DNA of 64,000 nt, taken from assembly GCA_964016885.1 (NCBI GenBank), contig OZ024751.1, forward strand, positions 38,068,001 to 38,132,000, in the 5' to 3' direction. A program made the translations under genes and the position numbers. The notes under the pieces were generated by a model, which was not told the origin of the DNA, ran no database searches, and was given only the letters and a program-made list of their open reading frames with translations. Shown in pieces: positions 18,969-63,353 of the stretch; position 1 is the stretch's first letter; each line of letters starts with the position of its first letter. Origin of the DNA: Eledone cirrhosa. Lineage: Eukaryota.

Positions 18969-20935
18969 AAAAATCAACAAGCTGAAATACTGTCAGCAGC
19001 AACACATCAACTTGACTGCCATTTCATCACTAGAGATTAAAAAACATAACCTCCAAAACAACATAATGTCCCTCATCAACAATCAGAGAAGAGCTGAAGA
19101 GGCCTGGGCCATTGAGAAGATCAAACTCAATCCCAAAGTATTCTTTTCATTTGCAAAAAAACACAAAATCACTGGCTCTACTGTTGGCCCTCTAATTGAT
19201 GAAAATGGCACTCTTCAAGACAATGCTAAAACCATGGGTGAGATACTGCAGAAACAATACTGCTCTGTTTTCAGCAATCCTGATATGGCCGATCTGGGCT
19301 GTATCGGCGATGTTACTCCCCATTACACCTTATCGGACATAACGTTTGGCGCCCCTGATGTCTTAGCGGCAATAAAGGAAATCAAGCATAATTCAGCAGT
19401 AGGTCCCGATAGGTTCCCTGCTTGTGTCTTGAAGGCGTGTCAACACCAACTTGCATCTCCTCTTGCCAATCTGTGGCGGAACTCACTGGATGCTGGATAT
19501 GTGCCAGAAAACCTTCTATCCCAGTCTGTTGTCCCAGTTTTCAAAAAGGGAAACAAATCCCTTGCCGTGAATTACCGTCCAATCTCACTCACCTCTCATA
19601 TGATTAAGGTATTTGAGAGAGTGGGGAGATCGCGAATGACCCACTTCCTTGAGAGTAACAATATGCTGAACTCCAACCAGCATGGATTCCGTAATGGAAG
19701 GGATTGCCTGACGCAGCTACTGCATCACTTTGATGACATTTTGAGAGCCTTGGGAGAGGGTTCCAACACTGATGTTATCTACCTTGATTTCAGCAAGACC
19801 TTTGACAGGGTTGATCATAACATTCTACTGAGAAAGCTGTCCAATATTGGTGTCACTGGAAAGCTGCTGCAGTGGATCAAGAGCTTCCTGTCAAATAGAA
19901 CCCAACATGTTGTAGTTGAAGGAGTCAAATCCAGCCCAGCCAAAGTCAGTAGTGGGGTCCCACAAGGCACTGTGTTGGGCCCACTTCTCTTCATCATTAT
20001 ATATTAATGAAATCACTGACATCATCAAACACAGCAACATTAAAATTTTCGCTGATGATTCCAAGCTCCAAAAGGTCATCAATGGCGTGGATGACCGGAT
20101 AAGCCTTCAGTCAGACCTACTGGCTGTTACCCAATGGGCGGAAAAGAACAACATGTTACTGAACGAAGACAAATTCGAACTGATCCACTTTGGAAAAGAG
20201 GATGCTCTGAAACTCCCGTACTCCCTTCTCTCCGGGGAAACTCTCGTGGCATCTAACAACATCAGAGACTTGGGAGTAACCGTGGACAGCAACATAAGCT
20301 GGGCCACGCATATAAACAGCAAAGTTGACATGGCCCGCAGAATGTGTTCCTGGATCCTCAGAACCTTCCAGTCGAGAGATTCCCACACCATTATCCTTCT
20401 CTTCTCTACTTTTGCCCGACCACACCTTGAATACTGTTGTCCACTGTGGTCTCCCCACACGAAACAAAGTATCATGAAACTTGAAGCTCCTCAAAGGGCA
20501 ATCACGAAAAAGATAGATGGCATGTCAGACCTTGACTACTGGGGTCGACTAGACAACCTGAAACTTTACTCACTCCAACGTCGCCGTGAGCGTTATATTA
20601 TCTGCATGATGTGGAAAATGTGCCATCATCACTGCCCAAATGATGTTGGCATCGCCTTCAAGATACACCCAAGGCTTGGGCCCCGTGCTATCCGTCCCAT
20701 TCAAAAATCTAAATCGCAACTCATAACAACAATACGGTACAATTATTTCACCTCAATCGGCCCTGCTCTCTTCAACATCACACCAGGACACGTCAAAACA
20801 GAAACTGACCACACAAAATTCAAGAAGTCTTTGGACAAATTCCTCCAAGTAATCCCGGACAAACCACCCACACCCGGATATGTCTCCGCAAACAATAATT
20901 CTCTTCTCGAATGGGCCATGGTGCCCAAATCCTGA
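18969..20935 (+). pseudogene. LINE ORF2 reverse transcriptase, frameshifted near 20000
   Basis: Motifs [46 protein letters not shown] in ORF 18184..20007; FADDSKL, RDLGV, RPHLEYC, LYSLQRRRER in ORF 19916..20935. Confidence 0.93.
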
Positions 20936-22768: not shown

Positions 22769-23624
<856 letters not shown>

Positions 23625-25806
23625 AAATTGGAATAAATGCTCTGAAATAGCGATATATATGTGAATATAGACATAGAATATTCGAAAATATTCTGTATGT
23701 TTATAATAAACATTTTGAAGACCTAATCGCTATAGAATAGAATACGTCACGTATTACAATTAGATTCTCGATAAAAGCAAGGGAAGTAAGTCTACGCGTT
23801 TCATTCTCGTTAGAAATCGTCAGGACTACATATCCAGTGCTTTTATCGAGAATGACACAGCTAGAGACTTATAGAATACTTAGCTGTGTACAGGAACTGG
23901 TTTGAAAGAGCGGTTGCCGGTCCGGCAGAAATTAGAAATTGGAATAAATGCTCTGAAATAGCGATATATATGTGAATATAGACATAGAATATTCGAAAAT
24001 ATTCTGTATGTTTATAATAAACATTTTGAAGACCTAATCGCTATAGAATAGAATACGTCACGTATTACAATTAGATTCTCGATAAAAGCAAGGGAAGTAA
24101 GTCTACGCGTTTCATTCTCGTTAGAAATCGTCAGGACTACATATCCAGTGCTTTTATCGAGAATGACACAGCTAGAGACTTATAGAATACTTAGCTGTGT
24201 ACAGGAACTGGTTTGAAAGAGCGGTTGCCGGTCCGGCAGAAATTAGAAATTGGAATAAATGCTCTGAAATAGCGATATATATGTGAATATAGACATAGAA
24301 TATTCGAAAATATTCTGTATGTTTATAATAAACATTTTGAAGACCTAATCGCTATAGAATAGAATACGTCACGTATTACAATTAGATTCTCGATAAAAGC
24401 AAGGGAAGTAAGTCTACGCGTTTCATTCTCGTTAGAAATCGTCAGGACTACATATCCAGTGCTTTTATCGAGAATGACACAGCTAGAGACTTATAGAATA
24501 CTTAGCTGTGTACAGGAACTGGTTTGAAAGAGCGGTTGCCGGTCCGGCAGAAATTAGAAATTGGAATAAATGCTCTGAAATAGCGATATATATGTGAATA
24601 TAGACATAGAATATTCGAAAATATTCTGTATGTTTATAATAAACATTTTGAAGACCTAATCGCTATAGAATAGAATACGTCACGTATTACAATTAGATTC
24701 TCGATAAAAGCAAGGGAAGTAAGTCTACGCGTTTCATTCTCGTTAGAAATCGTCAGGACTACATATCCAGTGCTTTTATCGAGAATGACACAGCTAGAGA
24801 CTTATAGAATACTTAGCTGTGTACAGGAACTGGTTTGAAAGAGCGGTTGCCGGTCCGGCAGAAATTAGAAATTGGAATAAATGCTCTGAAATAGCGATAT
24901 ATATGTGAATATAGACATAGAATATTCGAAAATATTCTGTATGTTTATAATAAACATTTTGAAGACCTAATCGCTATAGAATAGAATACGTCACGTATTA
25001 CAATTAGATTCTCGATAAAAGCAAGGGAAGTAAGTCTACGCGTTTCATTCTCGTTAGAAATCGTCAGGACTACATATCCAGTGCTTTTATCGAGAATGAC
25101 ACAGCTAGAGACTTATAGAATACTTAGCTGTGTACAGGAACTGGTTTGAAAGAGCGGTTGCCGGTCCGGCAGAAATTAGAAATTGGAATAAATGCTCTGA
25201 AATAGCGATATATATGTGAATATAGACATAGAATATTCGAAAATATTCTGTATGTTTATAATAAACATTTTGAAGACCTAATCGCTATAGAATAGAATAC
25301 GTCACGTATTACAATTAGATTCTCGATAAAAGCAAGGGAAGTAAGTCTACGCGTTTCATTCTCGTTAGAAATCGTCAGGACTACATATCCAGTGCTTTTA
25401 TCGAGAATGACACAGCTAGAGACTTATAGAATACTTAGCTGTGTACAGGAACTGGTTTGAAAGAGCGGTTGCCGGTCCGGCAGAAATTAGAAATTGGAAT
25501 AAATGCTCTGAAATAGCGATATATATGTGAATATAGACATAGAATATTCGAAAATATTCTGTATGTTTATAATAAACATTTTGAAGACCTAATCGCTATA
25601 GAATAGAATACGTCACGTATTACAATTAGATTCTCGATAAAAGCAAGGGAAGTAAGTCTACGCGTTTCATTCTCGTTAGAAATCGTCAGGACTACATATC
25701 CAGTGCTTTTATCGAGAATGACACAGCTAGAGACTTATAGAATACTTAGCTGTGTACAGGAACTGGTTTGAAAGAGCGGTTGCCGGTCCGGCAGAAATTA
25801 GAAATT
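23625..25806 (-). repeat. 311-bp hammerhead satellite/retrozyme array, left arm, 7 head-to-tail monomers
   Basis: 'ggaataaatgc' recurs at 23630, 23941, 24252, 24563, 24874, 25185, 25496; minus-strand hammerheads at 23786-23829 and every +311. Confidence 0.96.
23786..23829 (-). ncRNA. Minimal type I hammerhead ribozyme (first of 7 minus-strand copies)
   Basis: gtagtc CTGACGA t ttct aacg agaa t GAA ACGCGT A gacttac. Confidence 0.94.
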
Positions 25807-25827
25807 AGAAATTAGAAATTAGAAATT

Positions 25828-27499
25828 GCTTTTATCGAGAATCTAATTGTAATACGTGACGTATTCTATTCTATAGCGATTAGGTCTTCAAAATGTTTAT
25901 TATAAACATACAGAATATTTTCGAATATTCTATGTCTATATTCACATATATATCGCTATTTCAGAGCATTTATTCCAATTTCTAATTTCTGCCGGACCGG
26001 CAACCGCTCTTTCAAACCAGTTCCTGTACACAGCTAAGTATTCTATAAGTCTCTAGCTGTGTCATTCTCGATAAAAGCACTGGATATGTAGTCCTGACGA
26101 TTTCTAACGAGAATGAAACGCGTAGACTTACTTCCCTTGCTTTTATCGAGAATCTAATTGTAATACGTGACGTATTCTATTCTATAGCGATTAGGTCTTC
26201 AAAATGTTTATTATAAACATACAGAATATTTTCGAATATTCTATGTCTATATTCACATATATATCGCTATTTCAGAGCATTTATTCCAATTTCTAATTTC
26301 TGCCGGACCGGCAACCGCTCTTTCAAACCAGTTCCTGTACACAGCTAAGTATTCTATAAGTCTCTAGCTGTGTCATTCTCGATAAAAGCACTGGATATGT
26401 AGTCCTGACGATTTCTAACGAGAATGAAACGCGTAGACTTACTTCCCTTGCTTTTATCGAGAATCTAATTGTAATACGTGACGTATTCTATTCTATAGCG
26501 ATTAGGTCTTCAAAATGTTTATTATAAACATACAGAATATTTTCGAATATTCTATGTCTATATTCACATATATATCGCTATTTCAGAGCATTTATTCCAA
26601 TTTCTAATTTCTGCCGGACCGGCAACCGCTCTTTCAAACCAGTTCCTGTACACAGCTAAGTATTCTATAAGTCTCTAGCTGTGTCATTCTCGATAAAAGC
26701 ACTGGATATGTAGTCCTGACGATTTCTAACGAGAATGAAACGCGTAGACTTACTTCCCTTGCTTTTATCGAGAATCTAATTGTAATACGTGACGTATTCT
26801 ATTCTATAGCGATTAGGTCTTCAAAATGTTTATTATAAACATACAGAATATTTTCGAATATTCTATGTCTATATTCACATATATATCGCTATTTCAGAGC
26901 ATTTATTCCAATTTCTAATTTCTGCCGGACCGGCAACCGCTCTTTCAAACCAGTTCCTGTACACAGCTAAGTATTCTATAAGTCTCTAGCTGTGTCATTC
27001 TCGATAAAAGCACTGGATATGTAGTCCTGACGATTTCTAACGAGAATGAAACGCGTAGACTTACTTCCCTTGCTTTTATCGAGAATCTAATTGTAATACG
27101 TGACGTATTCTATTCTATAGCGATTAGGTCTTCAAAATGTTTATTATAAACATACAGAATATTTTCGAATATTCTATGTCTATATTCACATATATATCGC
27201 TATTTCAGAGCATTTATTCCAATTTCTAATTTCTGCCGGACCGGCAACCGCTCTTTCAAACCAGTTCCTGTACACAGCTAAGTATTCTATAAGTCTCTAG
27301 CTGTGTCATTCTCGATAAAAGCACTGGATATGTAGTCCTGACGATTTCTAACGAGAATGAAACGCGTAGACTTACTTCCCTTGCTTTTATCGAGAATCTA
27401 ATTGTAATACGTGACGTATTCTATTCTATAGCGATTAGGTCTTCAAAATGTTTATTATAAACATACAGAATATTTTCGAATATTCTATGTCTATATTCA
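25828..27499 (+). repeat. 311-bp hammerhead satellite/retrozyme array, right (inverted) arm, about 5.4 monomers
   Basis: Reverse complement of the left arm; 'gcttttatcgagaatctaattg' at 25828, 26139, 26450, 26761, 27072, 27383; ends in (TA)n. Confidence 0.96.
26088..26131 (+). ncRNA. Minimal type I hammerhead ribozyme (first of 5 plus-strand copies: 26088, 26399, 26710, 27021, 27332)
   Basis: CTGACGA 26094-26100, stem II TTCT/AGAA, GAAACGCGTA 26115-26124, stem I agtc/gact; predicted cut after 26124. Confidence 0.94.
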
Positions 27500-27514
27500 T
27501 AAATATAAATATAT

Positions 27515-27579
<65 letters not shown>

Positions 27580-27596
27580 AATATATATATAAATAT

Positions 27597-28312
27597 AGTA
27601 TTAGTTATACTATTTATGGTTATGTAAACACAAAACCTTAAGCAGTTGTAAGTATTTTACACACACCCTAAATAGTGGTAGGCAGTAATGTATTACTACC
27701 TTATTACCAGTAAGTTAAGTAGCTCAATGTAAAAACATCAGATGATTTACAGAGCAGTTATATGAAATATAAGAATCAAAAAACTGTTCAAAACATTATT
27801 GTGCTTACAGCTGTTTCCTCCAAACCGAGGTTTGGATTCTTCGGAGCAATTTATTAATGCATGGACAGTTATATGACCTCCTTTTCAGCCGAGAGACTGA
27901 AAAGGAGGTCATATACCTACCTAAGTGCCTCTACCACACATATCTCTCTGCCACACTATATAAACAAGACGCACATGCGTGCCACACATATAACATTTGC
28001 ACTATATAACCACTTATCTTCATGTTGTACTTTAACCTATATCTTTGATTTTTGATTGTACCTATTAATATAAATGTAATCTCGAAGTGTGTACTGCCAC
28101 TCTAAATTCTGTAATGAATGTTGACCCACAATGTTTGAATATGTATCAATGTTTGAATATGTATTGGTATGTCTCTCGGCTGAAAAGGAGGTCATATAAC
28201 TGTCCATGCATTAATAAATTGCTCCGAAGAATCCAAACCTCGGTTTGGAGGAAACAGCTGTAAGCACAATAAAGTTTTGAACAGTTCTTTGATTCTTATA
28301 TTTCATATTTCA
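27597..28312. mobile_element. TA-embedded hammerhead element, family F, with 138-bp inverted arms
   Basis: Arms 27760-27897 and 28171-28308; inner hairpin 27870-27916; hammerheads at 27802-27848 (-) and 28220-28266 (+). Confidence 0.88.
28220..28266 (+). ncRNA. Type I hammerhead ribozyme, CCGAAGA core variant
   Basis: tgct CCGAAGA a tccaaac ctcg gtttgga g GAA ACAGCTGT A agca; identical copy on the minus strand at 27802-27848. Confidence 0.85.
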
Positions 28313-62191: not shown

Positions 62192-62382
62192 TAACGAAGG
62201 AAGAGTGGTAAGGAACCAGATGGACCAAAACGCACCAGAGTACTCAATACTCAGGGTAGTAGAGTAGGTAATAGGAAAATGTTTGATCCCGACGGCAGAG
62301 GTCAACCCGTTTCGACGGCTATTTCGTGAAATAGCCGTCGAAACGGGTTGAGCTCTGCCGTCGGGGTCAAACACTTTCCTAT
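62192..62382 (-). mobile_element. Family A variant fold-back element (half hammerhead)
   Basis: Tail 62192-62270 plus palindrome 62271-62382 with apex gacggctatttc-gt-gaaatagccgtc, followed by GAAACGG...CCGTC ggggtc. Confidence 0.92.
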
Positions 62383-62410
62383 ATATATATATATATATCT
62401 ATATATATAT

Positions 62411-62617
62411 ACGTTATTCCGGGTTGAATCGGAGGTAACCACAGTAAGTAAGGTACTCAATACATTGCAGAGTATAAAAGTTTTAATATAGATCAGATTC
62501 TACAGGACTAGAACTGTTTCATTCTTTAGAAATCATCAGGAATCTCATATAGAGATTCCTGATGATTTCTAAAGAATGAAACAGTTCTAGTCCTGTAGAA
62601 TCTCATCTATATTAAAA

Positions 62618-62620
<3 letters not shown>
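62411..62620 (-). mobile_element. Family B fold-back hammerhead element
   Basis: Palindrome 62478-62620 with complete hammerheads on both strands (62495-62545 minus, 62552-62604 plus); tail 62411-62477. Confidence 0.92.
62552..62604 (+). ncRNA. Type I hammerhead ribozyme
   Basis: gagattc CTGATGA t ttct aa agaa t GAA ACAG ttctagtc CTGT A gaatctc; GUA triplet. Confidence 0.9.

Positions 62621-63353
<733 letters not shown>

Follow-up and report, generated by a model that had tools for sequence, protein, structure and literature searches.

We identify a 3.9-kb mirror-image array on contig OZ024751.1 of Eledone cirrhosa as a very young insertion made of a 311-nt repeat that is non-coding and bears a hammerhead. 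Within the window, the whole 64,000-nt stretch that we analysed, the array comprises 7.02 and 5.38 identical units placed head to head within (TA)n, with no mismatch to the 311-nt unit in either the left or the right arm. These counts bear out the original prediction of seven monomers followed by about 5.4 inverted ones, and the TA-rich tracts that border the array (22769-23624 and 27500-27597) agree with its placement of the whole structure inside (TA)n. The geometry, the fixed outer ends, the scattered inner ends with microhomology, the single haplotype per locus and an A>G bias are directly observed; the pairing of two fixed outer ends ~35 nt apart, the family of ~1,300 copies and the A>G bias had no place in the original prediction. 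We consider it likely that a Penelope-like element (PLE) enzyme cut both (TA)n strands and that, primed from both DNA ends, it reverse-transcribed a single monomer RNA, probably a circle, through several turns. We also lean, by a small degree, towards a fuller reading, namely that the palindrome is the print of a pair of PLE reverse transcriptases (RTs) rolling, from the two ends of a DNA break, round a single ribozyme-made circle, with host A-to-I edits on that circle written into all units of the two arms. Unit positions are counted from the predicted cut (position 1 = 26125), and the parts of the locus are as follows.

22769-23624, no strand: left (TA)n-rich target tract, a TA-rich flank
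23625-25806, minus strand: arm A, 7.02 identical 311-nt units, with its outer 3' end (the tail end) at unit position 168 and its inner end at about 164
23625-23661, minus strand: one-sided tail (unit positions 132-168), at the outer end of arm A only; the family pattern agrees
23786-23829, minus strand: outermost arm A hammerhead, recurring every 311 nt in seven copies
25807-25825, no strand: 19 extra nt at the junction, reiterating AGAAATT, followed by a 2-nt overlap with arm B
25826-27499, plus strand: arm B, 5.38 identical units, with its inner end at unit position 13 and its outer 3' end at 131
26064-26153, plus strand: first arm B hammerhead with its 16-bp stem I extension; core from 26094, predicted cleavage after 26124, five copies in the arm
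26125-26435, plus strand: one monomer from the predicted cut; 35% GC, longest ATG ORF 30 aa, circular fold z = -4.5
27500-27597, no strand: right (TA)n-rich target tract, a TA-rich flank

Manual inspection of the core and helices finds a type I hammerhead with helices I-III in 12 of 12 copies, seven on the minus strand in the left arm and five on the plus strand in the right. The identification rests on this inspection because the Rfam hammerhead models give no match in the array, at gathering score or at E<=10. By the same manual check, stem I is bulged, 6 bp long and prolonged by a perfect 16-bp helix, stem II has 4 bp closed by U·U, and stem III consists of one pair and a palindromic tetraloop. 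Each monomer had been predicted to carry a canonical hammerhead; the type I core is present in all 12 copies, but the ribozyme is modelled as weak rather than canonical, with U·U at the base of stem II and a one-pair palindromic stem III. The predicted cleavage after 26124 coincides with the site named earlier. In hammerhead numbering, common family variants fall at tolerated sites: core position 7, loop II, a U-to-A change closing stem II, and the stem I bulge. None of 29 locus-fixed variants lies in the 12 invariant core positions, a weak test given that about one is expected there.

The 311-nt unit has 35% GC, neither an LTR nor a coding frame, and no ORF longer than 30 aa; folded as a circle, it is stabler than 100 shuffles (z = -4.5). 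An ORF joining RT and GIY-YIG was found neither in the unit nor inside 20 insertions scanned. Its length, low GC, lack of LTR and coding frame, one type I hammerhead per unit and dispersed copies are those of a non-LTR retrozyme, the identity first proposed for it; on sequence grounds we assign the repeat to the animal non-LTR retrozymes, with its cleavage and circles predicted only. As described in the available text of PMC7229834 and bioRxiv 10.64898/2026.07.22.740005, animal non-LTR retrozymes are likewise non-coding tandem units of 170-400 nt with GC below 45% and a type I hammerhead per unit. Axolotl retrozyme ribozymes share both weak features, the one-pair stem III with a palindromic tetraloop and the U·U at the stem II base, and are reported to cleave better as dimers (PMC7229834, in part); a related study of Xenopus saw no cleavage in 8 of the 9 retrozyme dimers predicted there. 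For published retrozymes these accounts show RNA, whereas the evidence for the 311-nt repeat is DNA sequence, with the A>G variants fixed at loci as indirect support for its expression as monomer RNA.

The palindrome is asymmetric, with outer ends at unit positions 168 and 131 and inner ends at about 164 and 13, and the RNA 3' directions of both arms face outward. Unique DNA outside the TA flanks shows no mirroring between the two sides, and a target-site duplication is unreadable inside (TA)n. At the junction, AGAAATT, present as two copies in the unit, has grown to five (25793-25827) through the 19 extra nt, likely by polymerase slippage.

Across the 3.0-Gb genome, the tail-end pattern gives 662 forward matches on many contigs; an estimate built on these forward matches, the reverse counts being duplicates, puts the 310-base repeat at about 1,300 insertions, and the family at about 4 Mb (also an estimate), as perfect hairpins. 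Among 68 tail ends fetched from the 75 listed, 62 are palindromic, four single-armed and two unresolved (L141 was judged by eye). For the junctions, 85 rows were reduced to 81 palindromes by dropping two L067 duplicates, the error-rich L083 and the gap-cut L041; the end of L064 was corrected by hand, and L140 was kept though its end lies on the fetch edge. All 81, most of them selected via an end, have one A end (161-171) and one B end (115-140), with 65 A ends at 166, 42 B ends at 131 and 26 at 140. A fairer sample is given by 22 loci found by interior sequence or beside such a locus: 20 are palindromes and two single arms, and an A end is paired with a B end in all 18 of these loci that have both ends readable. 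The hold-out of 60 new loci, picked by their A end, yielded 48 A/B palindromes (one duplicate pair included), one A/A palindrome, seven cut or gapped palindromes and four single-armed or cut loci. Taking the commonest ends, the tail measures 35 nt (166 versus 131) or 26 nt (166 versus 140). Older, diverged subfamilies retain the first part of the tail and differ elsewhere, suggesting that this part is a recognition signal. Two single arms (L074:604-875 and L077:631-921) start at the B end and stop shortly beyond the A site (167-168), having covered approximately one circle minus the tail.

These data bear on whether the array is an assembly or fold-back-read artefact, or a satellite inverted later by DNA rearrangement, which we regard as highly improbable. 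Comparable structures do exist in the assembly, as a single locus (L295) of the 60 in the hold-out combines A/A ends with mirrored flanks, and the exact junction of the 3.9-kb array is bridged by none of the listed short-read contigs of runs X1 and X2; these runs cover the extra AGAAATT repeat 49-68 deep, a depth that could stem from other loci. In the 3.9-kb array, however, the ends are unequal and the flanks are not mirrored, the two end positions are repeated at more than 120 loci, and in the X1/X2 contigs the haplotype variants reappear, with TA loose ends at positions 131, 140 and 171 of the unit. An artefact is therefore an unlikely source of the array, and its interpretation as a real insertion holds. 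The L294/L295 structure itself (C3:7.83-7.85 Mb), an A/A palindrome with mirrored flanks that duplicates its neighbour's junction, is an assembly fold-back or a secondary inversion.

Nearly all insertions of the family take the form of a head-to-head inverted, 5'-truncated copy with a tail on one side. An inverted 5'-truncated copy with a one-sided 30-40-nt tail is the layout described for PLEs in the portions of PMC8557442 and PMC3846280 available to us, and a PLE protein tested in purified form nicks, and then extends, each strand of AT-rich DNA, with two internal RNA start sites bounding the tail (PMC11167929, in part). The likeness to endonuclease-bearing PLEs thus covers the head-to-head inverted copy, a one-sided tail of about 35 nt, microsatellite targets and two RT start sites (PMC8557442; PMC3846280; PMC11167929, as far as their available text describes). 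In contrast to those elements, the 311-nt repeat has no RT or endonuclease ORF, and both of its arms are multi-turn copies of the unit; nor does it match in sequence the terminal repeats of the two coding PLE families compared. Within this genome, two young coding PLE families and other hammerhead repeats have the same two end classes. In L1 twin priming, both target ends also prime, giving a head-to-head inversion joined by microhomology, with the second primer annealing at a variable internal site and the arms not overlapping. The 311-nt arrays differ in having two fixed starts and in that both arms repeat the same unit many times.

We propose that array transcripts would self-cleave, probably as double hammerheads, that the monomers would be ligated to circles, and that host ADAR would edit some circles in their stems. 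A Penelope-like enzyme would then cut both strands of a (TA)n tract, one cDNA would start at unit position ~166 and the other at ~131-140, and both would roll round the circle for several turns. The two same-sense cDNAs would be joined head to head via microhomology and then filled in. Because both cDNAs would copy one circle, an edit on it would appear in every unit of both arms.

The inner junctions favour two primings over the fold-back of one cDNA. Inner ends are distributed uniformly along the unit (p=0.53), and a small-loop class is not in excess among the loop offsets (12 of 81 versus 10.7 expected). Of junctions without an insert, 43 of 62 share >=2 bases, against 18% by chance, the mark of microhomology; inserted bases occur at 19 of 81, often as local re-copies like that at the 3.9-kb array. 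Loci L082 and L083 have a common junction and different flanks, which we read as a microhomology hotspot. At L061 (2099-2370), 272 nt from a source repeat clustered on C25 (19-24 Mb) were captured at the inversion junction, likely by a template switch.

The original prediction had a multimeric cDNA folding back on itself. On that account the cDNA would have copied itself and the second end would then have been resolved at the other site, a course of events that we hold to be improbable. Fold-back accounts trivially for haplotypes common to both arms, near-perfect hairpins do occur (L143, L270), and self-priming has been proposed for head-to-head PLE copies (in the available text of PMC3846280). 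Yet either arm may be the longer one: B exceeds A at 35 of 81 loci (by more than one unit at 26) and at 19 of 48 in the hold-out, and a coding PLE that lacks internal repeats likewise has loci where the shorter-ended arm is the longer (L089/L090). Short loci hold B sequence missing from A (L141, L076) or A sequence missing from B (L049). Single-unit variants are mirrored across the junction in one case and unmirrored in 35 in the first set (four of the 35 from a haplotype switch at L153), and in one versus 42 in the hold-out (12 of the 42 an alignment artefact at L250). The two mirrored cases, at L082 and L260, sit in the minimal register that fold-back predicts, against about 60 unmirrored variants; moreover, fold-back needs a further assumption to explain why an A end is paired with a B end each time. 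Single-unit variants, which may postdate insertion, show more T>C than A>G changes (27 versus 11, p=0.03), which fits RT errors. The argument from arm length is weakened, and some homogenisation allowed, because variants recur at scattered units of one arm and the duplicate loci L285 and L286 differ by three whole units, so that arm length can change after insertion or in assembly. On balance, two primings remain our favoured reading and fold-back is disfavoured.

Both arms of a locus appear to derive from one monomer. At 48 of 50 loci, with 22 haplotypes among them, the two arms have the same majority haplotype; the C1 subset gives 34 of 36, versus 0.12 by chance, and in the hold-out the core haplotype is common to both at 51 of 52. 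Variants are mostly fixed within a locus (152, with 62 single and 15 intermediate). The arms differ in haplotype at L119, L153 and L265, and these loci together with L124 are exceptions showing that mixing or switching happens. Arms pass over the predicted cut site as many as 29 times. Inner ends do not cluster at that site (4 of 162 fall at most 10 nt from it, where 10.4 were expected), nor at the A site; 34 of 268 fall in unit positions 1-31, where about 27 would be expected, no clear excess in a hand count that included hold-out ends without haplotype correction. The uniform haplotype per locus and the absence of a pile-up at the cut site sustain the earlier proposal of repeated copying of one monomer, and the template was probably one circular monomer RNA.

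Substitutions fixed at a locus suggest A-to-I editing of the RNA template. Across 96 insertions, with seven lineage-defining positions left out, A>G on the ribozyme strand makes up 24 of 48 locus-fixed substitutions, and variant-by-background origins number 18 for A>G, 4 for T>C and 1 for C>T (p=5e-4). The hold-out, in which one divergent locus was skipped, repeats the pattern (A>G 11 of 21; 11 origins versus 4 T>C and 0 C>T, p=0.026), and 20 of 20 testable fixed variants are present in both arms. The direction of A>G was set by the majority base, and recombination could inflate origin counts; in each set, counting distinct sites gives a smaller excess, 8 A>G versus 4 T>C. Every one of the 11 A>G sites, among them unit positions 21, 260, 261 and 277, is predicted to be paired, compared with 56 of 91 among all adenosines (p=0.003), and the base 5' of the site is G in 0 of 11 and U in 7 of 11 (p=0.07). 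ADAR sites lack an upstream G and octopus edits heavily, according to the available part of PMC5625713. Single-unit variants show no such excess, with A>G in just 11 of 169. Wobble tolerance alone was rejected as an explanation of the bias: C>T is tolerated just as well and is the most frequent single change of the first set, yet it was fixed once, versus 29 A>G origins (Fisher 5e-8). An edit found in every unit of both arms would imply that one edited monomer served as template, at that insertion or an earlier one, while a linear multimer would give mosaics because each unit would be edited apart.

Two-ended priming could also have used a long linear multimer, or a template-jumping linear monomer, with uniformity coming from uniform parent arrays and later gene conversion; we judge this unlikely. 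The PLE protein PAc accepts unprocessed RNA in vitro, insertion still takes place with ribozyme mutants, units are exchanged between arrays after insertion, and template switches are seen (L153, and the captured 272-nt piece at L061). Against it, editing a multimer unit by unit should leave A>G singles, of which there is no surplus. Many variants private to one locus have gone to fixation in both of its arms, intermediates being few, and inner ends do not accumulate at the cut site. A circular template remains the reading that we prefer.

Resident PLEs were screened as candidate partners. Neither coding family received a name from Pfam or PDB; the best named homologue of a resident PLE protein is in Octopus vulgaris (69%), and RT or GIY-YIG Pfam marks lie on the homologues of one family. 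An intact family of 1,217 aa with an Asn-rich insert (L075, L158-L161 on C1 and C4) has dozens of copies identical over 635 aa, in 4.1-kb tandem units and A/B palindromes, and is apparently active. Its end classes lie ~45-60 nt apart (L075/L158), and those of a family with a 777-aa open stretch (L207-L236) ~37-39 nt, the closest spacing to the repeat's tail. The similarity of the monomer to the 1,217-aa and 777-aa families is not significant (shuffle p 0.37 and 0.61). A non-exhaustive search of these two families and a third that shares the monomer's hammerhead core found no autonomous partner with the monomer's tail, and the third family has no ORF of its own within 1.6 kb upstream in 30 loci. 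The variant-tail pattern, followed as a lead to a partner, gave only older, diverged subfamilies of the same 310-base repeat.

Related structures occur nearby and elsewhere in the genome. At 62410-62625 lies a small head-to-head palindrome of another hammerhead family. The core of this family is near-identical to that of the 311-nt unit, agreeing at 25 of 28 aligned positions; its two end classes are separated by ~67 nt, its candidate copies run into the hundreds, and no ORF was found. Short palindromic repeats are nested round the small palindrome (62200-62411 and 62644-62883). Just right of the array, a 138-nt inverted repeat (27760-27897 and 28171-28308; 99% complementary) ends at a TA tract and is possibly another PLE-type palindrome. 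Between TA tracts at 18970-20935 (plus strand) is what we take, judging the family by motifs, to be a frameshifted LINE-like reverse transcriptase remnant. Palindromes in (TA)n are also formed by two further families of hammerhead repeats, ~450-470 nt long and carrying an octamer-like motif (L052, L058, L080, L149). The 311-nt unit also turns up in sequencing runs that carry the labels of 18 organisms and come from 17 studies; no RNA run is listed among them, which does not bear on expression. In runs X4 and X8 it forms a single closed 340-nt contig without variants, the X4 haplotype having a fully paired stem II, and 0 raw Hi-C reads under X8's organism label (X23/X24) matched the unit, a result that concerns that organism and not the present genome. 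The plain reading is cross-contamination by abundant RNA, and free or shared RNA is possible.

Retrozymes and the PLE layout are already known, and a circle copied by a PLE has already been proposed: circle-templated tandem cDNA with a PLE partner is put forward for animal retrozymes in the available text of PMC7229834 and bioRxiv 10.64898/2026.07.22.740005, the latter favouring local expansion by unequal crossover. Unlike the present family, the retrozymes described there form head-to-tail arrays only, without head-to-head arms, fixed paired ends, (TA)n targeting or an editing trace. A literature search, with subscription journals and preprint supplements outside it, found no palindromic retrozyme arrays, two-ended priming, or fixed edits in such arrays.

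The ~1,300 insertions, near-identical to one another, supply precise start sites, junctions and variants with which two questions become simple to assay. One is whether animal retrozymes move via RNA circles and PLE enzymes, as proposed in the accessible portions of PMC7229834 and bioRxiv 10.64898/2026.07.22.740005; the other is how PLEs make their inverted copy and tail, for which self-priming was proposed and two start sites were later seen in vitro. The perfect hairpins, at an estimated ~4 Mb, are also a potential source of dsRNA. If our reading of the palindrome is true, the edits would be a genomic barcode proving a circular template and tying retrozymes to PLE machinery, and RNA editing would drive the sequence evolution of the element. 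If the editing reading is true, A-to-I edits would be inherited through DNA.
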